A DNA stretch of 64,000 bases from Candidatus Heimdallarchaeota archaeon (GCA_020353515.1 CP070695.1:4561414-4625413); one strand, 5' to 3'. Shown: positions 1,127 to 51,903, numbered from the stretch's first letter. Notes: generated by a model not told the origin, from the sequence alone. Numbers and translations are program-made.

Positions 1127-1510
1127 GTGCCTTTCATCAATATTTCATTTGCAGAAGCAAACCAAACCTTACAAGATCCATCAACTATTATTCAATTATT
1201 AAAAGAGAAGAAAATTAACCCCAAAGAGGCTAGTCTTTTGGAAAAATTAGGCCTTTATTCCAGAAATCGTCTTCCAGAAGTACTTGATGAAATCAGGACA
1301 CTTTGCGATGAAGCTTTTGGAGTAAAAGCTGAGGATGCCTTCCAAAGATTGTCTCGATTCGTAAAAAGCCAAAATAAGCGTGTATCTTGGGTTATTTTCT
1401 CAAGAACATTTCAATCTATTCAGTACGATGACCGAAATCCCCTAGAAGACTACAATCCTCGAGTATCAGAGGTCTTGACAATTACCTCAAAATTTAAAGT
1501 CATCAAATGA
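1127..1510 (+). CDS. Hypothetical protein, first gene of a 3-gene operon
   Basis: 127-aa ORF, GTG start preceded by a GAGGA-like RBS; 6-bp gap to the next gene. Confidence 0.6.
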   Translation: MPFINISFAEANQTLQDPSTIIQLLKEKKINPKEASLLEKLGLYSRNRLPEVLDEIRTLCDEAFGVKAEDAFQRLSRFVKSQNKRVSWVIFSRTFQSIQYDDRNPLEDYNPRVSEVLTITSKFKVIK

Positions 1511-1516
1511 GCAAAA

Positions 1517-3289
1517 GTGACACGAATGCAGTCATCAGATTGTGAAAAATTAGTGGAAGAAGCAACAGAGGCTTCTAAACATTCTCTTGATGTATCAGCT
1601 AAGATTTTTGAAGATGCAGCGAAGTGCTTTGATAAACTAGGAGATCGAAGAAAAGCTGGTCAATACCTCACATTAGCAGGTGATTTTTTCCTTGATTTGG
1701 ACAATAAAGAGAAAGCAGCCACTTGTTATGGAAAAGCAATTATGAGACATTTGATGATTGATGACATAGATACTGCTGAAATTCTACTTGAGAAAGGAAA
1801 AGAATATGGATTTTCCTCATCAACACATCAATATAGAATCGCATTAGATGCACTAGAAAGGCAAACTACCACAAAAATTGAAGAAGAGATATCTGAGGAA
1901 CAGGTACCTGAAATTGAAGTGCTCCCAGAGATTGATATTCTACCAATCGAAGAAGAAGAGGACCTAATCCCCCTCAAATCTGACTTATTTTCTCTTGATG
2001 AAGATGTTCAGCCAAAAAAACAAGAGTTCATTATACCTCAGCTTGAGAAAGAACAATCATCTACCTTAAGTTCATATGCAGTACTTGCTGCGGTATCCCA
2101 AGCAACCAGAGAAAAATCAACACAAGAAATAAAAACGAACGCATTTGTTAAGAATACATCTGGGGAATCACAATTCTTAGAACCTCAATTTGAACTGAGC
2201 CCTATCCAACCTATTGAAACATTACCAGTTTTAAGTGGTAAATCCACAATTGATCATTCAACTGAAGTAGAAACAAAGGATGTGGAGGTTCCAACTGAAT
2301 CGTTAGATGAATCAGATACCCTTGATTTAGATTATGCTGCAAAGGCTGAAATTACAAATGAATTTGAAGATGAATTAGTTGATATTGAAATTATTAACAC
2401 CATCCCTTTCAATTTTGAAGTAGTTAAAATTAAAGCAGATTTTAAATTGGATGAAAAAAAGCCAACGAACGAGGGGTTGGTTTTCACTTGGAAGAAAGAT
2501 AGGATTGAACCAGGGGAGAAGATTTCTGTCGAATATATTCTAAGAAAGCGTGTAGAACGTTCAATAGTCTTACGAAAAGAAAATAAAGTTTCCGTAGTCA
2601 ATTTATTTCATTCAGTCCAACAGCAGATGCAAGCAAATTTAGATTTTGTGAACACATCTGGAAAGGTTTTTTATGAAATTTTGATCGAGGATGTCATCCC
2701 CCCAGAACTAATCGTTAATGAAACAAAAACAAATAAGAAAATTAAACCCGTAACGATACCTACACATGATAGTACTCTTTATCGATGGATCTTCAGTAGC
2801 CTCCCCCCAGGTGACAACTTCTCTGTACTTTATGAATTCCGAGAAAAACCTCTAACTAGGCATTATAAAGATGAAATTGATTGCACAGATGGCTTAGTTC
2901 GAATTGAAAAGATTTCACAACCTATAGTAGACTCAAATCAATATGAATATATGTGGTTATTTTTTGTGGAAAAACCAATACCTGATAATATTACTATCAT
3001 TGATCGAATTCCTTCAGATTTTAAACTCTTACTAGTAGATCCTCCCCATTTAAATCCTTCTATTAAGAAAGAAAAGACTCATCAAGAACTAACTTGGCGA
3101 TTAAGTCCTGAGGAAGTTCCTACAGCAATAATTTTAAGAATAAGTGGAGAAGAATCCTTTACTCCATTAGCACCATCCATTGAGTTCGCTCGTGGAGATG
3201 AAATCCAACTTATTGAACGATCTACGTCATCAGAGAAAAAATTAGTTGATATTCGCCGATTAAGTCAGAGTCAGAAGGAGTCGAAGTAG
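1517..3289 (+). CDS. SNAP/TPR-like helical N-terminus, acidic linker and C-terminal tandem beta-sandwich domains
   Basis: N-terminal SAKIFEDAAKCF...AGQYLTLAGDFF...AATCYGKAI resembles alpha-SNAP-like helices. A long E/P-rich linker follows, then three repeats of the type (N/D)xIP..F.V...W (INTIPFNF..FTWK; EDVIPPEL..YRWI; IDRIPSDF..LTWR). Confidence 0.65.
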   Translation: MTRMQSSDCEKLVEEATEASKHSLDVSAKIFEDAAKCFDKLGDRRKAGQYLTLAGDFFLDLDNKEKAATCYGKAIMRHLMIDDIDTAEILLEKGKEYGFSSSTHQYRIALDALERQTTTKIEEEISEEQVPEIEVLPEIDILPIEEEEDLIPLKSDLFSLDEDVQPKKQEFIIPQLEKEQSSTLSSYAVLAAVSQATREKSTQEIKTNAFVKNTSGESQFLEPQFELSPIQPIETLPVLSGKSTIDHSTEVETKDVEVPTESLDESDTLDLDYAAKAEITNEFEDELVDIEIINTIPFNFEVVKIKADFKLDEKKPTNEGLVFTWKKDRIEPGEKISVEYILRKRVERSIVLRKENKVSVVNLFHSVQQQMQANLDFVNTSGKVFYEILIEDVIPPELIVNETKTNKKIKPVTIPTHDSTLYRWIFSSLPPGDNFSVLYEFREKPLTRHYKDEIDCTDGLVRIEKISQPIVDSNQYEYMWLFFVEKPIPDNITIIDRIPSDFKLLLVDPPHLNPSIKKEKTHQELTWRLSPEEVPTAIILRISGEESFTPLAPSIEFARGDEIQLIERSTSSEKKLVDIRRLSQSQKESK

Positions 3290-3310
3290 CCTTCATACTA
3301 CCAAGAATAT

Positions 3311-5242
3311 ATGGAATTACCAGGAATGGATATTACTATTCTAGCAGTACATTGGGATGATATTTCAGGCCCATCTATCATCTCATTATTCCCGCATACG
3401 ACTTTAAACGATCCTGAATCCGTTGCACTGCAGATTTATCTCGCATCAGTGACAGTTTTTGGCCAACATGGACATTCACAAAGAACTGAATTTTCTGTCC
3501 CTTTGTTAAGCCTAGGTCAAGATATCACAGCCCGTGTGGCATTTGATTCATGGCCTGATACATCCTTACGGGGAAAAGAGCGCCCTTTCTTTCTAGCTTT
3601 TATAACAGATCAGACTACAGGAGAAACACTCAAATCTCACCTTAATAATTTTTTTTTTGAATATCTTGATAGTTTGAAGAATGAGAAGTCGAATTTTTCA
3701 GCACAACAAGTCTGGGAATCCGTAATCACATCATTTCAAGCTCCAAAGGATAAAGAATTTGATGCCATTTCTTTTGAAGTCGATTCGGAATATGCTATCC
3801 CACGAGCCCTCACAGATCTTGAAACAGCTAAAGATGCTTGGGAGAACCTCAAAGATAGAAGTCAATTATGGACCGCTTTACGTGTTGCAAACCGATTAGA
3901 GAATGTTGATGATAAAGGAGCAGGATCTGCTTTCTCATTAGTTGGGAAAATCCTCTTAACGGGACACAGTTATCAAGAGGCAGGAGAAGCTTTTGAAAAA
4001 GCGACAAATTGTTACAATCGAGTTCGATTATTTGAGGAAGCCGGAGAAACCTCATATTTAGCTGGTAAATGTGCGTATTATTTAGAAGAATATGAAAAGG
4101 CAATTGATCTTATTCAAGCAGCAACCTTATGGATAAAAGATCCTGCTTTAGTCGCGTCACTAAATTATGACATGGGTATTGTACTCCATGAACAATCACG
4201 TTATGAAGAAGCAAATGTATGTTTTGAAAAGGCAGTTCGATTAGCAACAGATTTAGATACACAAACCGCAGCAGAATACTCTTCAACTTTTGCTAGTAGA
4301 TTGATGTATCAAGCAGAAAAAGAAAAAGAAGAAAATCCTGCATATGCTCTTGGACTAATCCGAAGATCAGCTGATCAAAGAGAAGAGGCCTCACGATTGC
4401 TACAACTGACTGAAGGAGGCTCTCAAACCGCAGCGACATCACTGATATTAGCCGTGAGTGCATATTTTTCACTCGGAAACAAAGAAATGGGGGTTAACTT
4501 ATTAGAGAAAGCAATAGATCTATTTATTGACGCGGAAGATTATATATCTGCAAGCAGGTCGTTATACGATGGTGCTCGGATGATTAGAGATGAAAAAAGA
4601 TCTTATGAGCTACTTTCCCGAGCACTAATTTTGCTGCAAGAAAAAGAAGCTAATTTTCAAGAGGATCGTTTAGTGGGATTAATTTCTTTTGAGAAGGGTA
4701 AAATAGAGGAAAAAATGAACCAGCTCTCAAACGCTCTTAACTCATTCGAGAATGCTATCATTCATTTAACTAAATCGGGCGCTCCCGAGCTAGATTTAAT
4801 ACCTATCCATATTCAATACGCTAATACCCTATTTAAGCTTGAAGATTTTGAAAAAGCTGCAGAATTCTTTCTCACAGGTACTAAAGGATTATCTTCACTT
4901 CTTCCAACAGAAACAGTTGTTGATCAAAAGAAAAAGGCACTCATGAATGCTTTAATTAGTTTACGACGAGCTAGTGCCGCTTATCATAACGCAGCGACCA
5001 TAATTTTAAAAGAAAAGGATGAAACCCGTGCAATTACGATGTTTGCTCATTCTGTTTCTCTTCTAATAGAATGGGTTGAAAACAATCCCAAAGATAATCA
5101 AAACGAAGTAAGAAAAGTGATTGGAACCCGTATCTCGCGATTATCGGTTAAAAAGGATCTTCTTTTGTTAGCGGAATCAAAATTCAAGATTGACTCAATG
5201 ATTGAAAGTTTGGATATGGCTCTTCAAACTTTTCGGACGTAA
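3311..5242 (+). CDS. N-terminal longin/uDENN-like domain fused to SNAP/TPR-like helical repeats
   Basis: ILAVHWDDISGPSIISLFP matches the FDxxxGPxI hairpin typical of uDENN/longin folds, with an LRGKER-type motif downstream. The remainder is TPR-like (EAGEAFEKA, YEKAIDLI, YEEANVCFEKA, FEKAAEFF). Confidence 0.65.
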   Translation: MELPGMDITILAVHWDDISGPSIISLFPHTTLNDPESVALQIYLASVTVFGQHGHSQRTEFSVPLLSLGQDITARVAFDSWPDTSLRGKERPFFLAFITDQTTGETLKSHLNNFFFEYLDSLKNEKSNFSAQQVWESVITSFQAPKDKEFDAISFEVDSEYAIPRALTDLETAKDAWENLKDRSQLWTALRVANRLENVDDKGAGSAFSLVGKILLTGHSYQEAGEAFEKATNCYNRVRLFEEAGETSYLAGKCAYYLEEYEKAIDLIQAATLWIKDPALVASLNYDMGIVLHEQSRYEEANVCFEKAVRLATDLDTQTAAEYSSTFASRLMYQAEKEKEENPAYALGLIRRSADQREEASRLLQLTEGGSQTAATSLILAVSAYFSLGNKEMGVNLLEKAIDLFIDAEDYISASRSLYDGARMIRDEKRSYELLSRALILLQEKEANFQEDRLVGLISFEKGKIEEKMNQLSNALNSFENAIIHLTKSGAPELDLIPIHIQYANTLFKLEDFEKAAEFFLTGTKGLSSLLPTETVVDQKKKALMNALISLRRASAAYHNAATIILKEKDETRAITMFAHSVSLLIEWVENNPKDNQNEVRKVIGTRISRLSVKKDLLLLAESKFKIDSMIESLDMALQTFRT

Positions 5243-5267: not shown

Positions 5268-7529
5268 CTAAATAAACTTCGGTTTTAACTGATCAATGAG
5301 TTTTTCTTTCTTCATCTGCAGCTTTTCTTTTCGTTCATTCATACGATTGATGATTTCAGAATGTTTACTTTCAGAAATCTCATTATTGAGAAACTTTTCA
5401 TCAGCTGCATTTATAGAGTCATCAATGCCGGAGATAGCTTCTTCTATCTCTAGCAATTGAGGATCTTTTTGTGGATCATCAATGAGATCGAAAGTTGCGC
5501 TATCTGGGCTTGGTTCTTCAACTTTCTTGTCGAGCTCCTTGAGATCCTCATCTGATTTGTGAAATAATTTGACAACTTTTTCCCTATCGTAATGCTTGTT
5601 TTTACGCTTTGTTCCATGTCGTGGGGGTTTTGGGGGCCTTGGGGGCGTTGGGGACTTTAAGGATTTTAAACCTTTGATTGCCTTTAAACCTCTTCTAGGA
5701 GTATCAGTTAAAACTTCGTCCTCCCCTACAATGAATCCTAATTTCTCTCCTCCTGATTCTGCAAATAACAGCTGAGGATCTTCTTTAAAAAGAGTTTCAA
5801 CCCGCTTTGTAAATAATTGATTGAAGTTATGTTGATCCTGTATAATCCTTGATCTCATTTCTTCTAAATCAAGAGGATCCCCTTCTTGAATATCTATTCC
5901 AAAAACCCGTACTTTTTCTCCTTGAGGTGTTTCTATAACAGAAACAAATGGAGTTTGTACAAATGAATAATCAGGGGTTTCTAAAACTGTTACAAATCCA
6001 CCAAGGATTTGTACATATTGTCCAACACCTTTCATTTCAATTACTTTAACAATTCCCCCCAAAATATGAACCAATTCTAACATATTAGATTCAAAAACGT
6101 ATATTCCAGGTAATCTTACCAAAGAATAATCTTCAGTTTCTGTAATTGAATACTTAGATGGAGTGGCATCAACTGAGGAAAAAATACCTTGCGGCCCACG
6201 CCATGCTTTCAGGTCATTTATTGCTCTTTTACTCTTTTCAAAAATATCGGTTACAGCTTCAATCCCGACATTTTTCAGTTCTGTCTCTGTTAATTCGCTC
6301 ATATCTTTAGGGGTCAACTGAAGCTTTACTTTATCCCATTCTTCAGGTGGTAGCCAGATAGTGGTGGTGCCATCAATTTCTTGTTTTTTCGACGTATCCT
6401 GATCTTCGGTTTTTGTCTCTACTTCTGACTTTCCCATAAGAACTAAAGCTGTACCCTTCTCTGTGACTGTTGGAACTGCAATTGTCCCTTTAGCTGCAGT
6501 TAAGGATGTTTTCCCCTTACTTACAAGTTTCATATGGTCAGTTGGAATAGTATACACTCGTTCTGGTTTTTTAAACTCTGTGGCTTGAATTGTTTGAGCG
6601 AAACTTTGAACACGATTGCCAAGCTGACTTGTTGGGTTTATTGCTTGACCTGTGACAGCGTTTGCTAAAGACCCAAATTTATTTTCCTGCGTTTTTGGGG
6701 CAAAAATTAGAATAAAACCTATCAATAAGCTTAAGAAAGAGGTGAATTGAAAGATTTGAAGATATGCTGAACCAACCCATTGGAGTAAAAGAAAAATTAG
6801 AAAACAAAAGCCGCCAAATAGAAAAACATCACGCAATCTTTCCGTTCGGGATCTTAAGGCTTGATATTGATTAAACAAGTCAGTAGCACTAACTGCAGAA
6901 ACTGAGACTTGTTTGGGAGATACTGGAAGCAGACTACCAAGCAAGTACAAAAAGAATGAAATAATGAGCAAAGCATTAAAATCTATAAAAGGAAAATAGA
7001 CAGGATTGAATAGGTAAATTCCCTTAAAAACGTAAATTATCAAAGATACTGTCCAACAAGCTTGAAGGATCTTTTGGATATAGAACCAGTAACCCATTTT
7101 CAGAGTTTGAAAGGAAAAACTGTTCCACAAAATTACAAGAGGGATAATAAGGCTTACAATTGTTCTTTCGAGGTCACCATATGTAAATCCATTCAGATCA
7201 GGAACAACATAATTTGGAGTAGAAATTAAAATCAGAACAAAGAAAATAAAAATCTTTCCCGCACGATTCATTGGAGATGCTGCGGATTTATCATCCTCTA
7301 TGAGGTATTTATACACAGGTATGATTATAAATAGGGCGATTACACCAGTGAATAATGTCGCACGAAATATCACATTTTGTGGGAATAGAAATGCTGAAAG
7401 CCACCAGAATACCAACAGAAGCAAAAAGACTAAATCAAGAAAAGTTCTGGGTTTGAAAAATTGTTCAGTCTGGTCTAAAGCAAATCCTTCTAAAGACCGA
7501 TATTTTGGCAATTGAAATTGTTCCGTCAC
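5268..7529 (-). CDS. Multi-pass membrane protein with a large cytoplasmic C-terminus (beta-hairpin repeats, Pro-rich segment, helical hairpin)
   Basis: About 8 hydrophobic segments in the first 280 aa, followed by a beta-rich repeat region, PTPPRPPKPPR and a C-terminal coiled coil. Confidence 0.75.
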   Translation of the reverse strand: MTEQFQLPKYRSLEGFALDQTEQFFKPRTFLDLVFLLLLVFWWLSAFLFPQNVIFRATLFTGVIALFIIIPVYKYLIEDDKSAASPMNRAGKIFIFFVLILISTPNYVVPDLNGFTYGDLERTIVSLIIPLVILWNSFSFQTLKMGYWFYIQKILQACWTVSLIIYVFKGIYLFNPVYFPFIDFNALLIISFFLYLLGSLLPVSPKQVSVSAVSATDLFNQYQALRSRTERLRDVFLFGGFCFLIFLLLQWVGSAYLQIFQFTSFLSLLIGFILIFAPKTQENKFGSLANAVTGQAINPTSQLGNRVQSFAQTIQATEFKKPERVYTIPTDHMKLVSKGKTSLTAAKGTIAVPTVTEKGTALVLMGKSEVETKTEDQDTSKKQEIDGTTTIWLPPEEWDKVKLQLTPKDMSELTETELKNVGIEAVTDIFEKSKRAINDLKAWRGPQGIFSSVDATPSKYSITETEDYSLVRLPGIYVFESNMLELVHILGGIVKVIEMKGVGQYVQILGGFVTVLETPDYSFVQTPFVSVIETPQGEKVRVFGIDIQEGDPLDLEEMRSRIIQDQHNFNQLFTKRVETLFKEDPQLLFAESGGEKLGFIVGEDEVLTDTPRRGLKAIKGLKSLKSPTPPRPPKPPRHGTKRKNKHYDREKVVKLFHKSDEDLKELDKKVEEPSPDSATFDLIDDPQKDPQLLEIEEAISGIDDSINAADEKFLNNEISESKHSEIINRMNERKEKLQMKKEKLIDQLKPKFI

Positions 7530-7691: not shown

Positions 7692-10600
7692 TTATTGTAT
7701 TAGAAGCTGACCTCCACAGAATGTACAGCCCTCCCGAGTAATTTCCAAAGGATTTACTAGAGCACCACATTCAGAACAAACCGTGAGTTCTTCATTTGGG
7801 GTATTTATTTCCAGAGTATTAACTTCTAATTGGCCATTTCCATTAGTGAATATTTCATTTGTCTCCAATTCTTGGAGTTCATCTTCAGAGATAATGGGAG
7901 TCTTCTCTAGCGGTTCTGTATCTTTTGATTTTAATGGTAGTATTTTAATAGGTTTGATTGATGGTTTATCTTGAAGAAGAATATCTAAACCCTGAGGCGT
8001 TACTTTTCTCCTTACAGGACTTTTTTGACTGATTTGCTTTTTAAATTTCACTCTAGGTTTCTTAACTTTTCTCTTAGTTCTTACATGCCTTTTTGGTTTC
8101 TTCTGATAATCTATTTTTTGTTCCTGACCTTGAGTTGTTGGTAGTTCACTTAAATCCAATTCGATGTTCGTCGTTTCAACTAATTGTTGAGCAGTTTTAG
8201 GATATTTTATCATCCTATCATAAATTCGACCGGGGCCAAAAATATCTTCTGTGTACTGCTTCATATCTATCAGTTTCATTAAATCCTCTTTCGTCGACAA
8301 CTCTCCAAGCATAAAACTAAGTGTGGCTATTGCATGCTTTACTAAAACTTCTTTTATCTTCTTAAATTCAAAATCAAACAGTTGATGAGGGATAACATGA
8401 TTTCCCTTGATATTCAACATTTGAACTCGTGTTCCAGGATCTACAGAATAACCGAGGTCTTTCAAAATATAGGCTGCTGAAACTTGAGGTAATTTTGATT
8501 TGTAAGCTCTCAACGGTTTATTGATCGCCTTGGGTTTAACAAAGTAGCTAGGATCCATTTTGCCCTCTGTCATTTCTGATCGAATCAGATTCGCTTGTCT
8601 ATCAGCATTTTCATATAATTGATTTAATGTAATAGGACTTTCGGGATTATAATGTTCTAAGTATGTGTTAATAATCCTTTCTTGAAAATATTTTTGCAGC
8701 TTTGAAAAATCTGCTCGTTTTGATTCCAGTCCTGTTAATTCCTTCTCAATCCAGGTATGGTTTTCTTGGTTGTAACTATAGACAATGTATTTCTTCTTTC
8801 CCATCATGAATTGGAAATCATAAGGCCCATCTTGCTCAAATTGGATAAGGCTTTTACTTGTTCGTTTAATTTTTTCAATTTCTCCGTTATTTATCCAATA
8901 ATTATCATTTCTTGAGAAAGCTGCAACACGATCATTGAGAATTTTATCAATAAGACTTATTTTGTAGACCTTTGATCCATTTCTGTTATGAGAATTTTCA
9001 ATTGTGACTGGAAAGTCTAAAGGAAATAATTTTGGTACCCAAAGCCATACTCCATCAGTATCTAACTCTACAACCAGTCCAATTTGTTCTAGTTGGTTCG
9101 CTGCCCAAAATATTAAATCAGCTGATAATTTCGTCGTAATGCCAGCACAGGGCATACTTGCATTCCTCACGCCTCCTTTCATACCTAGAAGGCCATAAAT
9201 ACTATTTAAAGGAACTTTCATACCAATTTGGGTACTTTCGTGGAATTTTTGTTGTCGTAGCAACCTTTGAGGGACTGGTTGATTATGATATTTCTGTGTA
9301 ATGATTTGTGAGAGTCTTTTAGCCTCAATCTTATGTCTAACCCGGGTATTGAAGAAATCGTCCATAATCCTTGCGACAAAATTGTAAGCTTTTTGACAAA
9401 CACGTGATCGAACAGACAGTAATATTGTTATTTTCTTAGTTCTTACATCCAAACTCAAAAATGAATTGTCTGGGAGCTGAATGTTCTCTGAAATATCTTC
9501 AAAGATGTCAAAATGATTTGTATTCAGCTTTGTTGTAAGTGTTGTCGCTTCAATTGCGTTGCGGAGCCATTGTTGAAGAGCTACAAACGGATCTTTCGAG
9601 ATATTTGATCCAAGATATGTGTGATTAACAGATACCTTTTCTAATTGTGATCCATTTTTGAGGATATAGGCTTCAGTCTTCTTCCCATCAAAGGTGAATA
9701 TTTCTCGAGACCGAGTGATACCATTTTGAATTGGTACATATTTTTTGCATTTTGCTTCATCCTGGGCTTTACAAACTGCACATTTAGCAGACCTAGTATC
9801 TTTAAAACGGCATGGTCGGTTTGCTGAAAGTTTAATAACCCAATCACCTTCAAAGAAACAACTGTTATCAGGTTCAACGAATTCACATACACGACACTTT
9901 GATATGGAAACTATACCTGATGGTTGAAGCTTGTATTGACGAATTTGAGATGGATACATTGATGTTACATCAACATGAACCCCTTTAAGTTGGGTCTTTC
10001 CATTTAAAGAAGATAGTTGGTCTATTTGAGCTAACACATCTTCAGCGACTTTTTCAACATTTATGGGATGATAGCTGGAGATTTCCTCTAAGATATCTCG
10101 GATAGAATTCAGTTGTCGAGTTAGTTCTTGATGTGGGGTTCCATTTTTTAAGAGCTCAACCTCTATTTCCTTTAAGAATCGTACTGGATCCTCTGAGTAT
10201 TCCACTTTCACTTCCCCCAATTCAGCTAATAGTCGTTTCTCAAATTCTTCTTTTATTACTTCTTTAGTTATTCTATTACTTTCTTTTACAATTACACCTT
10301 CAATGGTCTTTTTTAAGTTATCTAATACATCCTTGTTTACGGAATAATCGTAATAAAGATCACTTCGCCATATCCCTGGTCTTTTAGCCTCAACTAATCC
10401 CCCTGTGTAAGCTAATGACTCGATGACGACGCTAGGAGAAAAAGATGCTATATCGTTCTGTCCTATTCTCCTTCTTCCGATTATTTGATGTTTAAAATCC
10501 TCCGCATCAATTAAAAGGTCATCTAATGAACCTGCTCGTCGTGTTAATAATTCTGAAGCTGTAACTGGAAATATCTGGCCCATTGAAATGAAAAAATCAA

Positions 10601-11990
10601 GAACTATTTCTCGAACATATTTCCAAGTGATATACCCATCACAGCCTGCATAAGCAACGGCTGAGACTGGATCTTTTTTGATATTTAAGAGGATTTCTCT
10701 CCCTAAAGGTATTATTTTTAGCTTTTTCTCAACACTTGGTTTTAATCCAAGATCCTTTTTGGGTAGATAGCTATATTTTTCATTAAACAGGTATGCATCC
10801 AAATGGATAATTCCAGCACTAGTAACATGATCAATATTTGCTGATGAATAATATTTGTGTAAATCCTTTCTACTCAAGTTTCTTCCTTGACGAAATTTGA
10901 TTTCGAAACCTGTTTCTTTTTCTAAAGAAATTTTATACTTTTCTGAACGAATGGCGAGAAATGGGATATCAAAACGGCCCCCAAAGAAGTCTGTAAAAAC
11001 ATCTGGACGATAATCATCAACAGTTTGATAGAAGATTCGGATTAATTCTTTTTCAGTTGATACAATAATCACTTCTAACAGATACTTCTCGATTACATCT
11101 GTAAATTCCTGTACTGCTTCGGAGAAGACCCAATCAACCCAAGGTTTAGAATGATGTTCATCCTTTTGACGAAGGAGCATATAAAGATGTTTTTTTAGAT
11201 CTTTGGTATCAACTACTTTTGAATTAACAAGTAATTTGTTTTCGATTCCTGTAAACATTGATATCATTGATATTTGATCTTTATTAGGATTAGGATCACG
11301 TGTTTGCTCAAAATCGGTTTCAATATCAAATGCTAATATTTTTAAATGAGGAGGGGTTTTATTAGCTAATGGAGAAAGGTTTAGGATTTCTCCCCTGCTG
11401 ATTTCAGCAAGAAACCAGGCTCCAACTCGAACATCATGATCTATTGCACAACGATGATGAAATAACACATCAGCTTCACGCCATTCTTTTACTCCAGATA
11501 TTTCCTCGGTTTTTGTTCGGAGATTTGGAACTGATCCAGGACGATCCACGGTTACTTTAAGAAAACGATTTTTAACTAAAAAAGTCAGATTAGCTGCGTC
11601 ATAGTAATCACCACTCTCCACTCTAATTATCTGTTGGTCTCCAATCTCTCTGATTTGAGTCATTATACGATTGAGTTCTTCCTGTGACAATCCATCCTCA
11701 AGCAACAAGAAAAAGTAAGGTTCATGTCTTAAGAAAGCTTTTCTCTTCTGATGATCTTCATCTAGAAAATAAATTTGAATCCCATTAATTAGTTGCGATT
11801 TATTAAACTTTCTATTTTCGTACTGAGGATTGGTTTCATAAGTATCCTCCCATTGACTATGTGTTTCATAATCTAAAATGAAAATAGGTATTCTTTCACG
11901 TTCATTGTAACGAAATGGTTGGAACCATGATCTGTAGCCTGCATGAAAAGACCGTGATCGCGGTGTTTTTGACATAATACGTACCAGCAA
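7692..11990 (-). CDS. polB: Family B DNA polymerase, eukaryotic Pol epsilon (Pol2 N-terminal catalytic module)-like
   Basis: ExoI LAFDIET, ExoII GRFDIPFL, ExoIII YAGCD; Pol2-like SYLP, YTGGLVE..PGIWRSD, HVDVTSMYP..KLQP, LNSIYG, ELDTDGVW, ELTGLESKR; C-terminal CxxC..CxxC. The true start may be the ATG at 11975. Confidence 0.92.
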   Translation of the reverse strand: MLVRIMSKTPRSRSFHAGYRSWFQPFRYNERERIPIFILDYETHSQWEDTYETNPQYENRKFNKSQLINGIQIYFLDEDHQKRKAFLRHEPYFFLLLEDGLSQEELNRIMTQIREIGDQQIIRVESGDYYDAANLTFLVKNRFLKVTVDRPGSVPNLRTKTEEISGVKEWREADVLFHHRCAIDHDVRVGAWFLAEISRGEILNLSPLANKTPPHLKILAFDIETDFEQTRDPNPNKDQISMISMFTGIENKLLVNSKVVDTKDLKKHLYMLLRQKDEHHSKPWVDWVFSEAVQEFTDVIEKYLLEVIIVSTEKELIRIFYQTVDDYRPDVFTDFFGGRFDIPFLAIRSEKYKISLEKETGFEIKFRQGRNLSRKDLHKYYSSANIDHVTSAGIIHLDAYLFNEKYSYLPKKDLGLKPSVEKKLKIIPLGREILLNIKKDPVSAVAYAGCDGYITWKYVREIVLDFFISMGQIFPVTASELLTRRAGSLDDLLIDAEDFKHQIIGRRRIGQNDIASFSPSVVIESLAYTGGLVEAKRPGIWRSDLYYDYSVNKDVLDNLKKTIEGVIVKESNRITKEVIKEEFEKRLLAELGEVKVEYSEDPVRFLKEIEVELLKNGTPHQELTRQLNSIRDILEEISSYHPINVEKVAEDVLAQIDQLSSLNGKTQLKGVHVDVTSMYPSQIRQYKLQPSGIVSISKCRVCEFVEPDNSCFFEGDWVIKLSANRPCRFKDTRSAKCAVCKAQDEAKCKKYVPIQNGITRSREIFTFDGKKTEAYILKNGSQLEKVSVNHTYLGSNISKDPFVALQQWLRNAIEATTLTTKLNTNHFDIFEDISENIQLPDNSFLSLDVRTKKITILLSVRSRVCQKAYNFVARIMDDFFNTRVRHKIEAKRLSQIITQKYHNQPVPQRLLRQQKFHESTQIGMKVPLNSIYGLLGMKGGVRNASMPCAGITTKLSADLIFWAANQLEQIGLVVELDTDGVWLWVPKLFPLDFPVTIENSHNRNGSKVYKISLIDKILNDRVAAFSRNDNYWINNGEIEKIKRTSKSLIQFEQDGPYDFQFMMGKKKYIVYSYNQENHTWIEKELTGLESKRADFSKLQKYFQERIINTYLEHYNPESPITLNQLYENADRQANLIRSEMTEGKMDPSYFVKPKAINKPLRAYKSKLPQVSAAYILKDLGYSVDPGTRVQMLNIKGNHVIPHQLFDFEFKKIKEVLVKHAIATLSFMLGELSTKEDLMKLIDMKQYTEDIFGPGRIYDRMIKYPKTAQQLVETTNIELDLSELPTTQGQEQKIDYQKKPKRHVRTKRKVKKPRVKFKKQISQKSPVRRKVTPQGLDILLQDKPSIKPIKILPLKSKDTEPLEKTPIISEDELQELETNEIFTNGNGQLEVNTLEINTPNEELTVCSECGALVNPLEITREGCTFCGGQLLIQ

Positions 11991-36338: not shown

Positions 36339-36965
36339 TTGACAGTTCTCAAAATTGTACTAATTGGCGATGGTGGCGTTGGAAAAACTGCTATCCGGGA
36401 GAGATACCTTGGAAAAGGTTTTAAAGCCCAATATCTCTTGACCATTGGTGCGGATTTCGCCATGAGGGACGATACAATTCGAGGGGATTCTGTTCGATAC
36501 CAAATATGGGACTTAGCAGGACAACAACGATTTGATGCAGTTAGAGAAGTATATTATAAGGGAAGCGTCGGAGCACTGCTTGTATATGATGTTACACGCC
36601 CTGATTCCTACTTCAACACCCCCAAATGGATAAATGAACTTTGGACAAATAATGGTAGGGGTAGAGTGCCCATTGTGGTAGTCGCAAACAAAATTGATAT
36701 GCGAGAACTATCCGATGACACAGTGTCTCCAGAACAAGGGAGGGTCTTTACTGAACGACTTACTAAGCTAACCAGACCAGAAGGTTTTGATTGTTATTAC
36801 ATCGAAACTTCAGCTAAGACTGGAGTAAACATTCAAGCTGCTTTCACACTACTCGGTGAGAACATTATGAGATTTGTAAGCAGACAACGTAAAACAAGTC
36901 GAACATCAACAAGCCGTTTACGAGCAGCAGCTCAGCAACAAAGATCGCATTCAAGACGATACTAG
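36339..36965 (+). CDS. Rab-like small GTPase with polybasic C-terminal tail
   Basis: GDGGVGKT, TIGADF, WDLAGQ, NKID, ETSAKTG. Confidence 0.95.
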   Translation: MTVLKIVLIGDGGVGKTAIRERYLGKGFKAQYLLTIGADFAMRDDTIRGDSVRYQIWDLAGQQRFDAVREVYYKGSVGALLVYDVTRPDSYFNTPKWINELWTNNGRGRVPIVVVANKIDMRELSDDTVSPEQGRVFTERLTKLTRPEGFDCYYIETSAKTGVNIQAAFTLLGENIMRFVSRQRKTSRTSTSRLRAAAQQQRSHSRRY

Positions 36966-36995
36966 CTCATTTTTTCGCTCTAGGGATTTAATATT

Positions 36996-37703
36996 CTAAA
37001 ACAGTGACCTAAAGTAAACTAGGATGTGTTTCAGACTAATTTTCGATTCTCCTGCTTCTCGAGTTTGAAAAGTATAAGAAAATTCCCCAATAGAGGTTTT
37101 CCTTGGTAGAACCTTTAACATATCGAATAACAACTTATAACCTTTAGGAGAAACAGTTTTTGGATGTTGGTCAAGAATCTCGGCTATAAATTGAGTTTCC
37201 CCCCCAAAGAAACCACTCATAATATCTTTCGGGCGAGGTCGTCGTCTTATTAGCAGAGAGATTTTACCAAGTGTAGTAGCTCCCCAAGAAATTAGCTTAC
37301 GCCGAAAACCCCACCCTTCAACACTTGATCGGCTTCCAATAACCAATTGATTTCCTTCTGACAATAAAAGAAGGCCATCAGCAATTCTTTCTGGGGGATG
37401 TTGAAAATCACAATCAATAACAAAAAAAAAGTCAGTTGAAGTAATTTTAATCGCATCTACTAGGGATATTGTTAATCCTTTGACAGGTTCATCCTTACGA
37501 TCTAGAAAGCGAATTTTGGGGTTTTTATTCCCCCAATTTCTCACAATTTCTGCAGTTTTATCAGTAGAGCCATCATCAGCCACAATAATCGAAACTTGAG
37601 GGTATAATGATACCAATCGAGTTATCATTCTATCAATATTACTCTCTTCATTCAATGTGGGAGTAATGACAGTTAATCGGGCAGTAGAAGGTGTTTGATC
37701 CAT
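36996..37703 (-). CDS. GT2 glycosyltransferase, dolichol/polyprenol-phosphate mannosyltransferase (DPM1-like)
   Basis: PTLNE, DDGSTD, DCDFQHPP, GSR, DIMSGFF, REAGESK. Confidence 0.9.
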   Translation of the reverse strand: MDQTPSTARLTVITPTLNEESNIDRMITRLVSLYPQVSIIVADDGSTDKTAEIVRNWGNKNPKIRFLDRKDEPVKGLTISLVDAIKITSTDFFFVIDCDFQHPPERIADGLLLLSEGNQLVIGSRSSVEGWGFRRKLISWGATTLGKISLLIRRRPRPKDIMSGFFGGETQFIAEILDQHPKTVSPKGYKLLFDMLKVLPRKTSIGEFSYTFQTREAGESKISLKHILVYFRSLF

Positions 37704-37958
37704 ATAAATCCCACATAAGACAAGAAATTCTTATAATACTTTGTTTATAAAAATTTAAAAGATTTACTTCATTCCTGTAAGCTCAAGAAATATATATCAG
37801 AGGAGACCTTTGGTTAAAATCTTTTTTTTTCTTTTTCTTTTATTTTCTTTCGTCATCGAAATAGCATTTGCGGAGAACTTGAATGTGTAAGCTTTTTTAG
37901 CATTGATTTTGGAAATACATCTAAAGAATATACACATTCAAAGCTAGGGATTTCATTC

Positions 37959-38381
37959 ATGTCTCTCCGACCAATACTACAAAAATTTGCAGAAGGCTTT
38001 TCGGTTACTGGAATCTTTTTACAAACTCCTCAGGAAATCTTTCCAATTATTCAACAAAAGGCTGATTCTCTTTTACTCCTTAAACGTCATCCAAATCTTC
38101 AAACTGGCATTACTGAATTGAAAGTAGAGGATACTAACATGGGGGTTTTGGTGGATGTGCTGGATTCTGATACAAACATCGTTATTATTTCAGCGCCCAA
38201 ACATATCCAAGAGATTTCAGCTCATTGGAAGCGCTTCCTCCCTGTAGTTAAAAAACAGATCCAAATAGAAGAATTTATTCGTCAGGAAAGTATTGAAAAT
38301 AAGTTAATTAATCGATTAGAAGACATTCGTATCGCACTCAACAAAACAACCACAATTTTGAAGGAGAAAATGAAAATATGA
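37959..38381 (+). CDS. Hypothetical protein, possible roadblock/longin-like fold with a C-terminal helix
   Basis: Helix-beta-beta-helix-beta-beta-beta-helix-like pattern by eye; ATGA overlap with the next gene. Confidence 0.55.
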   Translation: MSLRPILQKFAEGFSVTGIFLQTPQEIFPIIQQKADSLLLLKRHPNLQTGITELKVEDTNMGVLVDVLDSDTNIVIISAPKHIQEISAHWKRFLPVVKKQIQIEEFIRQESIENKLINRLEDIRIALNKTTTILKEKMKI

Positions 38382-39679
38382 ATCAGGATCCTAATAATTC
38401 AGAAGAATTAGACCTCCAACTTGCCCAACGGATCATTGAATTGACAAAAGTTGTAGAAGAAAACAAGGTGATGATTGAAAAACTCGCATCAAACTTGGAA
38501 CATGGGAATTCTACAATAGAAGAATGTGAAAAACAATTACAAGATTGGGATTTAAAACTTGGAACGAGTTTTGAGGAAATAAGAAACCAGATTAGTGCGT
38601 TGGATGAGAAATTAGAACAGCAAGACCAAAATGTGAAAAATGAAAATCAAAAATTCGTAACTCAAGTAACTGAATTAGAAGAAAAGCTCAACCACCAAAT
38701 TCAAAACATAGATACTAAATTCGATGAAGTCTCAAGTCAATTCACAGAAATCCAAGAAGTTCAAAACAAGCATGATGAAACAATTTCATCTCAACAAAAT
38801 ACTCTTGAGGAGCAAAAAACAGAAATTCAAGATCGTGTACGAGAAGAACAATTCAAGAATACCTTTGATGAAGCAGTAAAAGATCTTAATGAGAAAATAT
38901 CTTCTCTAAATCAAAATCAAGAATCCTTACAATCAGAAATAGAAAATTATATCGAAAAAACTCAGGAACAATTCGAAAGTCTAGCAAAAACAATAGAATT
39001 AGTAGCAGACGGATTATCACAGCTTGAAGACCAAAACAAGAATCATTCTTTAATTTTAGAAGAACAACGAAATAGTTTGCGTCAATTTAAACAGAAATTA
39101 AAAGATTTAATTAGTCTTTCAAAAGAGGATCAAAAAACTCATTTCGAAAATTTTTCACGGATTATTGAAAGCTACAATGAAAATATTCGAACAGAATTGA
39201 CCATTGCAGCACAATCGCTCAAAGAATCAGATACTCAGATCCTTGATGAAGTTTCAGCTAGTTTTATGCCGAAAAAAGTAGGAAAAGAACTTCAAAAGAC
39301 GATTGCTGATCTAGCAAGCGAACTAAAGATGGAAACTCAAAAAACACGCGATGATTTAGTGCAAGGTCTTCAGGAAAATGTCCAAGAATATGAAAAAACA
39401 ATGGAGGGACAAAATACAAGTATAAAAAATTATCAAAAACAATTGGAAGAATTTCAAGACGAAATTTTAGCCATTATTGATCGTAAAGTTAATGAGAAAT
39501 ATGAGGTAGTATTTTCTCTTCTATCAAAGGTAGCAGTTCAAGCTGAGGAGCTCGCTCTCCTTATAAAAACTTCAGAAATTCACATATCATCATTTTCTTC
39601 ACAGAAAGATCAAATTCTTTCGGTTAATGATGAAGAAAATCAAGAAGAAGAATTTTCTCCCTCCGAAAGCTCCTTATAA
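38378..39679 (+). CDS. Long coiled-coil protein
   Basis: About 400 aa of Q/E/K/L-rich heptads with almost no Pro/Gly; no ATPase motifs. Confidence 0.8.
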   Translation: MNQDPNNSEELDLQLAQRIIELTKVVEENKVMIEKLASNLEHGNSTIEECEKQLQDWDLKLGTSFEEIRNQISALDEKLEQQDQNVKNENQKFVTQVTELEEKLNHQIQNIDTKFDEVSSQFTEIQEVQNKHDETISSQQNTLEEQKTEIQDRVREEQFKNTFDEAVKDLNEKISSLNQNQESLQSEIENYIEKTQEQFESLAKTIELVADGLSQLEDQNKNHSLILEEQRNSLRQFKQKLKDLISLSKEDQKTHFENFSRIIESYNENIRTELTIAAQSLKESDTQILDEVSASFMPKKVGKELQKTIADLASELKMETQKTRDDLVQGLQENVQEYEKTMEGQNTSIKNYQKQLEEFQDEILAIIDRKVNEKYEVVFSLLSKVAVQAEELALLIKTSEIHISSFSSQKDQILSVNDEENQEEEFSPSESSL

Positions 39680-39784
39680 GACGATAAAGAATGAAATAAA
39701 AAATAGAAGAATTTTGAGAGAAATAATAGAAAAAATCAAAATGTTCGACATTACTATCTTATAGATTACTGATGTGAATAAACC

Positions 39785-40312
39785 GTGACGATGGAAAGAC
39801 CGCTTAAAGTAGTAATTGCGGGAGAAAAACGGGTTGGAAAGTCAACCCTCGTCCATAGATTTATTCATAATCAATTTCCATTGAGAGGATTACGATCAAC
39901 TGTAGGATTTGACTTCACCATCAAAACGATAACTCTAGAAGATGGGGCAACTACAGTTATTCATCTGTTTGATTTTGGGGGTGAACCTGGTTATAAGAAG
40001 ATATTTCCTCAATATGCTTCTGACAGTGATGGACTCATTCTCGCTTTCGATCCGTCACGAGAGGAAACACTTGATGCCTTACATGATTGGATAAATGTTT
40101 ATGACCAACGAGTACGTAAGAAAGAAAGTGTAAACTTTCTAGTTTCAACAAAAGCTGATTTAGGGATTTCTACTTCTCCTCTCAAAATAAATGAATTCAG
40201 GAATAAATATCCCATTGCAGAATATTTCAAAACGAGTGCTCTCACAGGGGAAAACACACAAAGAGTATTCCAAAGGATGGCTGTCATTATTCAACAATCC
40301 CGAAAAAAATGA
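39785..40312 (+). CDS. Rab-like small GTPase (divergent)
   Basis: GEKRVGKS, TVGFDF, FDFGGE, TKAD, TSALTG. Confidence 0.9.
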   Translation: MTMERPLKVVIAGEKRVGKSTLVHRFIHNQFPLRGLRSTVGFDFTIKTITLEDGATTVIHLFDFGGEPGYKKIFPQYASDSDGLILAFDPSREETLDALHDWINVYDQRVRKKESVNFLVSTKADLGISTSPLKINEFRNKYPIAEYFKTSALTGENTQRVFQRMAVIIQQSRKK

Positions 40313-40340
40313 TCATTTTACCTAAGAGGCTGCTATCATA

Positions 40341-40895
40341 ATGAAAACTAAATTCTTTGCCGACACAAGCATATTAACAGTTAAAGTAGTGGTAGCGGGT
40401 CCAGGAGGAGTGGGTAAAACCACATTACTAAAGCGATATGAGACAAATAACTTTATACCAGCGGTTAGTACTGTAGGCATCAATTTTTTGGTCATGGATC
40501 AGGAAGTCGGAGAAACTGTTTTACGAATTGCATATTGGGATTACGCAGGGGAAGATCGCTTTCGATCCCTCTTTCCTGGTTATTGTCAAGGTTCATCTGG
40601 CGCATTGGTTGCTTTTGATACATCCAGAATTCAAACCCTGTCAGAATTGCCTGAATGGTTAAGAATGATACGAGAACACAATGATCCAGATATTCCTATT
40701 GTTCTAATTGGAAATAAATTAGATACTACGAACGATAAAACTAGAGAATTGATTGTGAAGTCTGCAGGGAACTTTGTCAAAGAATATAATCTTTCTGGTT
40801 ATTATTTATGCTCTGCAAAGACTGGAGAGGGGATGGAATCACCATTTGCCCATTTAGGTATTCTTATAATTGAAAGTAAAAAACGTCAAAGGTAA
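40341..40895 (+). CDS. Rab-like small GTPase
   Basis: GPGGVGKT, TVGINF, WDYAGE, GNKLD, CSAKTG. Confidence 0.93.
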   Translation: MKTKFFADTSILTVKVVVAGPGGVGKTTLLKRYETNNFIPAVSTVGINFLVMDQEVGETVLRIAYWDYAGEDRFRSLFPGYCQGSSGALVAFDTSRIQTLSELPEWLRMIREHNDPDIPIVLIGNKLDTTNDKTRELIVKSAGNFVKEYNLSGYYLCSAKTGEGMESPFAHLGILIIESKKRQR

Positions 40896-40961
40896 ATAAA
40901 AAGTAAAACAGGGAGGTTTGAAGATCTTTGCTCCCTTCAACCAACAAAGATATCACTTGGG

Positions 40962-42455
40962 TTAAATAATAGCTTCTAGGATTCCATTCAGCTTCTCTTC
41001 AACAAATCCTCTAGCGGAAAGATATCGTTTGTAAAATTTCCTGTACTCATCACGCACCATTTTTTCGTATGAAATGAAGAATAAGAGAATTGTCGCGATT
41101 AACGAGGCAATACCCGCTAGTAAAAACATAATGGCTGTGAACGAATACTGCCAATCAATCAAAAATGTGAGTAAAAAACCACCTAAGATAGCAACAAACG
41201 GTTGAGTCCATAACGAGCCAAATTTATTGATGCCCATAAATTGAGCTTCTTTTCCTTCAGGTACCAGATCCGCAGGTAAAGAAGCACGGACAGCTTCAAT
41301 AAAAACCGCCCCAAAGCCTCCAATGGCAGCAATTATTATAAAAATATGATAATAATTCCCAATTTCTATACCAGCCAGTAAGAAACAAAACCCTGAGTAT
41401 ATTAGGGATCCAACAATAGCTGTTTTAACCTTACCAAATTTTTGGATGAAGAGCCCGGCGGGAATCGCCATAGCAGCTGAAACCAACCCTGTTACTAACA
41501 GGGCGAAAGGAGTTTGATCCTTAGGAAGCCCTGCCGCAACAAGATGGATAATCAGGTATAATGCAACTGCTTCACTAGCAAACCCCCAGAATGATTGAAC
41601 GAAGAACATTTTTCCAAAATCTGAACCCGAAAAATTAAGAAGGTACCGAGGTGTTTGTAAGATATCAGTAATGGGGGAATCAATAGGTGGATATGGAGGA
41701 TTTGCTTTTTCAACTAAAATGAAAACGAGAAATCCACAAACAATGATTATCAAAGCAGGAAATAGAAATAGACCAAATTCTGCTAAAAATGACAGTTGAA
41801 AAACATCAGCCAAATCCAAGAGAGCTGAAGTAAACACATCAAAAAATACTAATCCCATTAAGCTACCCAGTATTGTAAATCCAGCTAAAACCAATCCAAC
41901 CCATCCTCGTTGTTCTTTAGTAAATAACTCTGAAAGCAATGCTCCATGAGGAGATGAAGCTAATCCAAGACCTACATAGATCAGAAAAAAGCACAGTGGA
42001 AATAAGATTATCATCAGATCTTCATTTGCTGTTCCTGCAAAAATCGGGGTCAGAAGCAGCATTATACCTGCAAGTAAACTCCCACCTAATATATAAGGTG
42101 CCCGAGCTCCATACCTTGAACGGTAATCATCGGAAAAAGCACCACCTATAATTACAGTTGCTAGAAAACCAACTGACCCTGCAGCAATCGAATAACTAAA
42201 AATAGTTTCAGCAAGTTCTGGTGATAATTCAAGGAATTCCTGGAGATAACTGAGATTAAAATATGCTATAATGAATGCTACAATTACTGCATTCGCTGTC
42301 CCAAAAATACCTAAAGCGACAATATTTCTAACTTTCTGTGATAAGAATCGCGTTCTTAATTCTTGCGTTGTTAAGAACTTGAATCTTTTTTTACTTTCTT
42401 CAGGAACGTTATTTGATTTTTCAACATCCATTTCTGACACTTCAGCTACTACCAA
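40962..42455 (-). CDS. MFS transporter (GPH/SLC45-like)
   Basis: About 12 TM; GAFSDDYRSRYGARAPY loop motif; ALLSELF...QRG. Confidence 0.88.
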   Translation of the reverse strand: MVVAEVSEMDVEKSNNVPEESKKRFKFLTTQELRTRFLSQKVRNIVALGIFGTANAVIVAFIIAYFNLSYLQEFLELSPELAETIFSYSIAAGSVGFLATVIIGGAFSDDYRSRYGARAPYILGGSLLAGIMLLLTPIFAGTANEDLMIILFPLCFFLIYVGLGLASSPHGALLSELFTKEQRGWVGLVLAGFTILGSLMGLVFFDVFTSALLDLADVFQLSFLAEFGLFLFPALIIIVCGFLVFILVEKANPPYPPIDSPITDILQTPRYLLNFSGSDFGKMFFVQSFWGFASEAVALYLIIHLVAAGLPKDQTPFALLVTGLVSAAMAIPAGLFIQKFGKVKTAIVGSLIYSGFCFLLAGIEIGNYYHIFIIIAAIGGFGAVFIEAVRASLPADLVPEGKEAQFMGINKFGSLWTQPFVAILGGFLLTFLIDWQYSFTAIMFLLAGIASLIATILLFFISYEKMVRDEYRKFYKRYLSARGFVEEKLNGILEAII

Positions 42456-42882
42456 TTATTTTTCAGTAGAAATTTTTATTTTTTAAAATTCCTTTCAAAT
42501 CTGTTCATAATTCTACTTGTCGAACAAGTTAGGAGAAAATCTCATTTCGCAGAATTGGGAGGTATCAGAGGAAGATATCTTTTATAATATTCAATGATCT
42601 GAAAGTCTACATTCATTTCAAAAAAATACCCTCAAACGAAATTATAGGATAGGTTAATATTTCCACAGAAACAGAATTCTACTAATTCTTGATCTCATAC
42701 TATCCTTGTTTGAATACATTTATAATGGCAGATGTTAGGCTAGTTCCAGAAACTTATGAAAATTTAAAAGGAATGGCTTTAATCGCTAACCTATAATAGT
42801 ATTCATGGTAAGCATTTTTTCAAATTTTTGTTTTAAAGTTTTTTTTCAGTAAATATTGAAATTTAACAATGAGGTAGAACCA

Positions 42883-46464: not shown

Positions 46465-46485
46465 GATTAAATCTGAGGTTCTAAA

Positions 46486-47331: not shown

Positions 47332-47353
47332 GAAAAGAGGAAAAGGGACGAAA

Positions 47354-50673: not shown

Positions 50674-50690
50674 AATTTTGAGGAAATAGC

Positions 50691-51866: not shown

Positions 51867-51903
51867 AGAAAATTTCTTCTAAGGTATTCTTACAATAGAG
51901 AAA

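Follow-up and report, generated by a model that had tools for sequence, protein, structure and literature searches.

Our analyses identify a conserved three-gene operon on the forward strand (1127..5242) of the window, a stretch of 64,000 nucleotides from a Candidatus Heimdallarchaeota genome. The encoded proteins resemble a GTPase-regulating complex more than a vesicle-coat adaptor. The genes, referred to here as A, B and C, encode products of 127, 587-590 and 643 aa, respectively, and occur as a single-copy operon in the Asgard order Hodarchaeales. Judging from its sequence, the head of C is a longin of the folliculin/SMCR8/NPRL2/C9orf72 type, not an adaptin or DENN-GEF longin. The reading that we favour, with a probability of about 45%, is that A-B-C constitutes a scaffolded GAP for an Arf-related GTPase. 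It starts from observed domain identities, motif conservation, operon conservation and the co-occurrence of C with B, from which we infer binding and catalysis.

Asgard archaea are close relatives of eukaryotes and have Arf-related, Rag-like and Rab-like GTPases. The domain class of the C longin, whose GAP activity is putative, has already been published for Asgard, and the GP motif plus an arginine finger has been tied to GAP longins and reported in this group in PMC12290439, where it is left open whether the GP-motif longins of Asgard act as GAPs and, if so, on which GTPase. In this operon we have a soluble, single-copy GAP candidate whose arginine is invariant, together with two partners encoded alongside it and, in the same genome, a named candidate substrate (G000:C1:2624312-2624908); the GAP question therefore becomes directly testable. 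If the scaffolded GAP reading is true, the heterodimeric longin GAPs of eukaryotes would descend from a homodimer attached to an Ig-repeat scaffold. For B, no described function was found in the literature searched, despite its recurrence across Asgard classes.

The first-pass annotation had singled out three tightly spaced, co-oriented genes (gaps of 6 and 21 bp), an observation which we confirm, and a comparison of synteny across Asgard genomes, the check that it suggested, showed gene order to be conserved. B and C are adjacent in 20/20 scorable same-genus loci and A and B in 19/19, while the order A-B-C is kept in all seven distant Hodarchaeales loci, whose flanks are fully different; in G023, A-B lies on one contig and C on another. 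An AAGGAG ribosome-binding-like site occurs in the end of B (3275..3280). In many relatives, the apparent start of C is an ACG situated 9 nt beyond this site, whereas here that codon is CCT and an ATG is found at 3311. The shared frame of B and C in most relatives is attributable to the fixed spacing from this site to the C start; a read-through fusion was considered and rejected, given tandem stops at two loci (L007, L012) and an out-of-frame arrangement at three others (L002, L009, L020). A promoter scan stayed at chance level. The expectation that the proteins of the operon are soluble and cytoplasmic was supported, the hydropathy of B peaking at 1.1 (19-residue window) with no transmembrane helix and no hydrophobic N-terminal signal; no transmembrane-type hydrophobic helix was found in any listed B-type representative. 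Gene order and gene fusions suggest that A, B and C may physically form one complex.

Gene C (3311..5242, 643 aa) encodes a GAP-type longin fused to a TPR solenoid. The longin occupies residues 8-143 (3332..3739), and the earlier longin/uDENN call for this protein was upheld by a match to C9orf72, the sole significant one of the longin profile against PDB (E 8e-4 and 2e-3, over 130 positions), and by the nearest Atlas cluster, which carries NPR2 on 19% of its members (score 0.91). The Pfam Folliculin match was weak (E 0.043, 2/23 members). The WD (W15-D16) and GP (G20-P21) motifs of the GAP-longin pocket (3353..3373) occur in 45/45 orthologues covering the region and align to the WD and GP of C9orf72. 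R87 (3569..3571), which lies in the loop joining longin strands 4 and 5 and is a putative arginine finger, is present in 58/58 orthologues and at 7/7 distant loci; together with D83, WD and GP, it is invariant in orthologues down to ~25% identity. The AF2 model of C displays the longin order of strands and helices, with R87 between strands 72-82 and 90-100. By motif and position, we take R87 to be equivalent to SMCR8 R147 and FLCN R164. SMCR8 Arg147 and the longin-dimer GTPase pocket have been described (10.1101/2021.04.13.439632), and the GP motif is reported in PMC12290439 from GAP longins (FLCN, SMCR8, C9orf72, NPRL2) and as absent from adaptins, TRAPP and DENND. The SNAP/TPR solenoid annotated behind the longin corresponds to a TPR superhelix (residues 163-642, 3797..5236), all-helical in the model; whole-chain fold searches of C were filled by TPR matches, the longin having been searched only within the full chain. 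No DENN module (cDENN, dDENN) was found behind the longin, the TPR superhelix occupying that place instead, and a second, C-terminal longin is absent from the C of this window.

Gene A (1127..1510) encodes a single-copy, small soluble protein of no known family, for which Pfam gave nothing convincing (best a weak SHOCT-like match, E 0.003). It sits directly upstream of the TPR-headed B, and its homologues precede B in other Asgard classes (E 1e-6 to 1e-10) as well as at the seven distant Hodarchaeales loci. A resemblance seen by eye between A and parts of two upstream or N-terminal modules of other Heimdallarchaeia was unsupported (profile probability <1%) and was discarded.

Gene B (1517..3289), the scaffold protein, comprises 590 aa from the GTG at 1517 or 587 aa from its probable start, the ATG at 1526. 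Its head (1526..1894, 123 residues) consists of six SNAP/TPR-like helices, in agreement with the SNAP-like helices first annotated; elsewhere in Heimdallarchaeia, a distinct gene of ~200 aa precedes the B orthologue, and its first half is the counterpart of the head. Of the acidic linker of roughly 150 aa proposed earlier, two acidic stretches remain, with a conserved strand-helix-beta-hairpin between them. Linker 1 (1895..2005) bears conserved short hydrophobic motifs, with 18 D/E against 2 K/R in residues 116-160, and linker 2 (2210..2320) is acidic, weakly conserved, of low model confidence (pLDDT <50 for residues 229-263) and absent in most other lineages. The intervening element (2006..2209), lying within the supposed hinge, is aligned in every B lineage, where it immediately precedes the sandwiches. 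The three beta-sandwich repeats recognized at first reading are present and probably of DUF11 type: sandwiches 1 and 2 with their connecting hairpin (2333..2845, DUF11-related) make up the core common to all Asgard B-type proteins, and a connecting hairpin, sandwich 3 and a final strand (2855..3235) are missing in Lokiarchaeia-type B. TPR/SNAP matches dominated the whole-chain fold search of B, in which the sandwiches were searched only as part of the full chain.

The DUF11 profile (PF01345) matched 7/31 B orthologues (best E 2e-7), the B of the window not being among them, and the nearest Atlas shapes to B are DUF11 proteins at low TM. The B core profile also matches giant proteins with 10-31 repeats, one sandwich each time, while the full two-sandwich unit occurs only in proteins matching Asgard B-type profiles, every named one of which is Asgard. 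B profiles had no match among PDB sequences. The proposed relation of the sandwiches to mu-homology and adaptin-ear domains was not supported by Pfam family profiles: mu-homology (PF00928) matched 0/31 sandwich regions at E up to 0.5, and adaptin-ear families matched 0/31 orthologues. A single distant B orthologue gave a mu-homology match of E 0.013, far below the cut-off. A separate Asgard family shows homology to the B repeat unit, and one of its members scores above the Pfam mu-homology cut-off (33.7 bits vs 31.6) and served as positive control; against this family, the B unit reached 97.7% to the last two sandwiches and 78-85% to one sandwich of the mu-like part. A remote kinship of the B sandwich unit to the Asgard mu-homology family thus remains, as far as profiles indicate. 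Foldseek rows to ribophorin I, pilins, delta-COP and TRAPPII, obtained with full-length chains, had TM by target <=0.2 and rmsd >19; ribophorin I was rejected as a relative, being a weak row only and B having no signal or membrane helix.

What is new in the distribution of these genes is the occurrence of B, as a single-copy gene, in nearly all Heimdallarchaeia searched, that of the A-B pair in Jordarchaeia/Freyarchaeia, and that of gelsolin-headed B relatives adjoining C relatives in Lokiarchaeia. B heads have been exchanged across Asgard classes (TPR, gelsolin-like, vWA, zinc ribbon). Long C-type genes were identified in 7/71 Loki-class genomes, all seven among the 13 with B-type genes, and 9/11 long copies adjoin B; the tenth probably belongs to the same operon continued across a contig break, and the eleventh lies at a contig end. 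In one genome (G284), the best match of a Hodarchaeales-only C profile (99%, 586 columns) shares a four-gene string with the best matches of a Heimdall-only B profile. The two tandem C copies of that genome, of which just one has the arginine, as in the SMCR8/C9orf72 pair, are only suggestive of a longin-longin dimer. Loki C relatives also have a second, C-terminal longin, and in several copies adjoining B the arginine, or all of the first longin, is gone. With these queries, a C-type longin was not found in most B-bearing Heimdallarchaeia outside Hodarchaeales, on which account we regard C as accessory. TPR-longin genes of ~615-645 aa beside B at three other Heimdallarchaeia loci were rejected as C orthologues, the match being generic (93-95%) and in the TPR part. 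The C-type longin, arginine included, is also the output domain of response regulators that are paralogues of the C head, and may therefore be a general signalling module; longin response-regulator fusions in Asgard are described by Liu et al. (10.1101/2020.10.19.343400). This shuffling, like the Loki C copies without the arginine, is an observation at odds with a GAP.

This genome contains about 55 small-GTPase-like genes. In one sister lineage (L065, L144; 95% identical), the gene immediately before A, in the same orientation, is of the Arf family, and in two Loki proteins an Arf-like domain is fused directly to a C-type longin with the arginine retained; both the neighbour and the fusions point to one gene here, the ArfR named above as candidate substrate. 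The adjacency concerns one lineage only, and the neighbours at other loci are Rab-like or Rag-like GTPases, an observation that speaks against ArfR as substrate. The neighbours at two loci (L143, L145), Arf according to precomputed Pfam, were found to be Rab-like by sequence and were set aside, as were the window's own GTPases (36339-53217), which lie >31 kb off, have Rab-like motifs and were unseen in the fetched flanks of relatives.

In the mechanism that we infer, a soluble A-B-C complex would switch off a small GTPase, most likely ArfR, with C as the catalytic subunit. One C chain would combine the WD/GP surface of C9orf72 with the GP and arginine finger of SMCR8/FLCN, and because a single chain bears the marks of both eukaryotic subunits, two copies may come together as a symmetric counterpart of the longin-dimer GAP pocket known from eukaryotes, R87 being inserted into the GTPase site. 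The TPR solenoid of C would dock the longin onto the A-B scaffold, whose constant core would be A plus the head and hairpin of B, and the tandem DUF11-type sandwiches may act as protein-binding platforms placing the GAP at its target structure. It is a speculative and rather unlikely extension that such a symmetrically self-pairing protein on a mu-kin scaffold was the forerunner of the C9orf72-SMCR8/folliculin GAPs, as an ArfR GAP tied to a gelsolin/actin or coat-like platform before eukaryotes.

Different scenarios might explain the same operon. A co-regulated signalling scaffold devoid of catalysis or of a stable trio, with A-B acting alone and the longin serving solely as an effector or sensor that binds a GTPase or a further longin, has a minor but appreciable likelihood: besides the Heimdallarchaeia with B and no detectable C, detectable C is absent in 6/13 B-positive Loki-class genomes, some C relatives are devoid of the arginine or of the first longin, and the domain has been shuffled into two-component proteins. 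However, the invariance of R87, D83, WD and GP to ~25% identity fits a catalytic site, and gene order has been retained despite fully changed flanks. A GEF function of C, of the DENN, Mon1-Ccz1 or TRAPP kind, is very improbable. Most eukaryotic longin complexes are GEFs according to PMC12290439, and the second longin of Loki C relatives has a weak Intu_longin_1 match (E 0.003), but the C of the window has neither this second longin nor a DENN module, and it carries the GP motif, which the same paper reports as absent from DENND and TRAPP longins. Of the small-GTPase regulation annotated earlier, the link to a small GTPase is supported; the GEF label is not, given the GP motif, the invariant arginine and the missing DENN module.

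An actin-cortex scaffold, in which B links GTPase control to actin through a gelsolin domain, fused in Lokiarchaeia and separate in Hodarchaeales, is compatible with the GAP reading and is unlikely. Many Loki B relatives carry at their start a domain resembling gelsolin (villin E 4e-10; Asgard gelsolin 7c2f E 9e-7), the best match here of the Loki gelsolin profile is a gelsolin-like gene ~2.5 kb upstream of A, which recurs at the same place in other same-genus loci, and in G209 the second gene downstream of a C copy encodes actin. Yet a gelsolin domain is missing from the B of the window, between the gelsolin-like gene and A stand HMG-CoA reductase and, on the opposite strand, a Nudix gene, the gelsolin-like gene barely outscores three others (E 1e-6 vs 9e-6) and was unseen within the fetched flanks of the seven distant loci, and the actin neighbour is a single case. 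The adaptor label was likewise not sustained, and a precursor-like coat adaptor, in which B would supply trunk, hinge and ear and C the longin subunit, an Arf-related GTPase recruiting them for cargo sorting, is improbable. The arrangement of a helical head, an acidic linker containing short motifs, and sandwiches, the ArfR adjacency, and the homology of the B unit to the mu-homology-bearing Asgard family, a gene of which is strung together with B relatives in G284 and G304, both of the Loki class, are in its favour, as are weak Foldseek rows to TRAPPII and the delta-COP mu-homology domain (E ~0.01; for delta-COP, E 0.012, TM by target 0.20, rmsd 23). Against this, both solenoids are TPR/SNAP, with no Adaptin_N or HEAT match in B, whose 123-residue head is not a HEAT trunk; the C longin is of GAP and not sigma/mu type, its profile matching C9orf72 and not adaptor chains; mu and ear families match 0/31 B orthologues, and the B model has no platform-like alpha/beta elements after the sandwiches; B has no membrane anchor, and the real mu-like gene of this genome lies 2.4 Mb from the operon.

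Among known systems, AP/COPI subunits resemble B in their layout of helical head, linker and sandwich and in the distant sandwich kinship to the Asgard mu-homology family, but B and C differ from them in having no HEAT trunk, ear platform or mu-homology family match and a longin of GAP rather than sigma/mu type. Asgard adaptor domains are unfused and sparse (Eme et al. 2023, PMC10307638), whereas B is single-copy in nearly all Heimdallarchaeia searched. In comparison with alpha/gamma-SNAP, B matches over ~120 residues only, below the Pfam cut-off, and other TPR proteins score within 2 Z units of its SNAP match. Unlike the DUF11 surface proteins of prokaryotes, B has no more than two or three units, with a conserved hairpin linking them, and is not membrane-anchored. 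The Asgard NPRL2-like/FLCN/SMCR8-type longins (10.1101/2020.10.19.343400; PMC12290439) have domain class and motifs in common with C; the longin-TPR fusion, the A/B operon and the Hodarchaeales-Lokiarchaeia B-C link were not found in the available portions of those papers. Finally, C9orf72-SMCR8-WDR41, FLCN-FNIP2 and NPRL2-NPRL3 (6lt0, 7mge, 7o2w) share with C the longin subtype, WD, GP and the arginine of the strand 4-5 loop. In contrast to these eukaryotic longin GAPs, C has neither DENN module nor beta-propeller partner, its longin continues into a TPR solenoid, the marks of both subunits are united in one chain, and its partners are A and an Ig-repeat scaffold.

The operon lies on the forward strand of the window, with gene A (127 aa) called at 1127-1510, gene B, which encodes an Ig-repeat scaffold with DUF11-type sandwiches, at 1517-3289, and gene C, which encodes a longin-TPR protein, at 3311-5242; the tight spacing reported by the first-pass annotation was confirmed, the gaps being 6 and 21 bp. 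B probably starts at ATG 1526, from which its residues are numbered. No membrane helix was found in A, B or C, no family could be assigned to A, and named homologues place the source genome in Hodarchaeales. Downstream, on the reverse strand, lie two genes. The first (5268-7529) encodes a 753-aa membrane protein whose soluble tail is large; it also has a proline-rich stretch, a coiled coil at the C-terminus and a weak CdvA-like match (E 0.07). The second (7692-11990) encodes a 1432-aa family B DNA polymerase in which a cysteine-rich stretch separates the exonuclease match from the polymerase match and a cysteine motif lies at the C-terminus. The first gene is convergent with C in several same-genus loci, a similar-sized gene being convergent in locus L142, and a family B polymerase gene is likewise found beside the operon in L141 and L143.

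At the B-C junction (window 3275-3313, compared with loci L004-L008, L011-L014 and L016), the start of C in many same-genus genomes appears to be ACG. The arrangement AAGGAG, 9 nt and ACG occurs in nine same-genus loci, four further loci have ATG or TTG in place of the ACG, and no canonical start codon is present 5' of the WD motif of C in L008, L013 and L014. In the window the codon at this position is CCT, with an ATG downstream. The WD/GP region is missing from 13 of 58 database entries of C, in some of them probably owing to the ACG start.

The order of the three genes is conserved: B adjoins C in 20/20 and A adjoins B in 19/19 scorable same-genus loci, and the order A-B-C is whole in all seven distant loci, where the flanking genes differ. 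One sister-family genome carries C on a separate contig. Gene A is single-copy in 23 of the 24 Hodarchaeales genomes, and in other classes its distant homologues lie directly 5' of a TPR-headed B, at five loci that the sources assign to Jordarchaeia and Freyarchaeia and at a sixth locus. The sandwiches of B were found in all Heimdallarchaeia genomes searched except two, usually as one strong match each. Outside Hodarchaeales, the B orthologues of this class have a different N-terminus, and a homologue of the B head is often supplied by an upstream gene of about 200 aa (94.8% profile match); no C-type longin-TPR gene was found in these genomes outside Hodarchaeales. In loci L034-L050 from these other Heimdallarchaeia, the N-terminus of B is an unrelated alpha/beta domain of about 100 aa, duplicated in some representatives.

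Two-sandwich relatives of B occur in 13 of 71 genomes of Lokiarchaeia, and long relatives of C, with a longin-TPR-longin architecture or the same without the first longin, in seven, every one of them B-positive. Of the 11 C copies, nine are next to B, a further one probably is too, across a contig break, and the last lies at a contig end. No P value is attached to these counts, since neighbours of B went into building the Lokiarchaeial C profile and related genomes are not independent. In a non-circular check in genome G284, the top match of a Hodarchaeales-only C profile fell in the same four-gene string as the B matches, and the reverse search into the source genome returned C as best single-domain match. 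On this pattern of adjacency and distribution, A-B looks like the core of the module and C like a regulatory subunit, kept only with B.

Many Lokiarchaeial B relatives carry a gelsolin-like domain at the N-terminus, and the source genome has a gelsolin-like gene some 2.5 kb 5' of A. This gene (277 aa, contig C1, 4559206-4560036), just ahead of the window and 5' of HMG-CoA reductase, recurs at the same position in other same-genus loci. It is also the top source-genome match to the gelsolin heads, by a small margin. In genome G209 an actin gene lies two genes downstream of one C copy on the same strand, and two C copies there probably belong, despite a contig break, to a single operon with a gelsolin-headed B (L149:4344-8776 and L124). 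A scaffold of the actin cortex, a role compatible with GAP activity of C, is a distinctly unlikely account of the module.

The suggestion that the B sandwiches are mu-homology domains holds as remote kinship, and not as membership. In a separate Asgard family of about 595 aa with a mu-homology N-terminus, one member of which exceeds the Pfam cut-off, profile comparisons give B a match of 97.7% to the last two sandwiches and of 78-85% to one sandwich of the mu-like part; this gene and B relatives share a gene string in G284 and G304, and in the source genome they lie 2.4 Mb apart. By these profile matches and gene positions, B is remotely related to the mu-like proteins of Asgard archaea and is no mu subunit. 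That the module is a proto-adaptor seems improbable. The closer adaptor-like candidate is the source-genome member of the mu-homology/DUF11 family (737 aa, C1:2178654-2180864, equal to L121:8655-10865), with an N-terminal PBS-type HEAT repeat. In G304 one strand (L151:6733-15000) holds a mu-homology gene, genes for a 757-aa protein that includes a Rag-like GTPase domain and for a 789-aa coiled-coil protein, and a B-type gene.

As to substrate, an Arf-family gene lies directly 5' of A in one sister lineage, and two Lokiarchaeial proteins fuse an Arf-like domain to a C-type longin, the putative arginine finger being retained; the best source-genome match of both is the same 199-aa Arf-related GTPase (C1:2624312-2624908). 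Since Rab-like and Rag-like GTPase genes also occur among the operon neighbours, this substrate stays a candidate. The fusions (L153:4467-7838 in G284 and L154:1017-3866 in G193) have the GP-motif longin, the former running on into PAS, GAF and a weak histidine-kinase ATPase match. Two paralogues of the C longin in the source genome, a 293-aa response-regulator fusion (C1:4481634-4482512) and a protein of 204 aa that has a short helical tail (C1:187795-188406), also have an arginine at the finger position. The window also contains, at 36339-53217, five genes for small GTPases bearing Rab-like motifs, two tandem pairs among them; no link between them and the operon was found.

The longin class of C, that of folliculin, SMCR8, NPRL2 and C9orf72, is already published. 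No description of the operon was found in the literature searched, which lacked most subscription papers. New here is the reach of the module, with B across Heimdallarchaeia, A-B in Jordarchaeia and Freyarchaeia and B linked to C in Lokiarchaeia; so are the gelsolin heads of B relatives, the Arf-longin fusions and the relation of B to the mu-homology family.

The analysis shows which domains the proteins carry, their motifs, the order of the genes and their co-occurrence; binding, a longin dimer, catalysis and the substrate of C are inferred. Our leading but tentative reading is that C is a GAP for an Arf-related GTPase (probability about 0.45). A non-catalytic or loosely coupled scaffold is unlikely, and exchange (GEF) activity of C is very improbable. 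Acting as a GAP, C would dock through its TPR solenoid on the A-B scaffold, the B sandwiches would bind a target, and two paired C longins would form the pocket, as the longins of SMCR8 and C9orf72 do jointly (10.1101/2021.04.13.439632).
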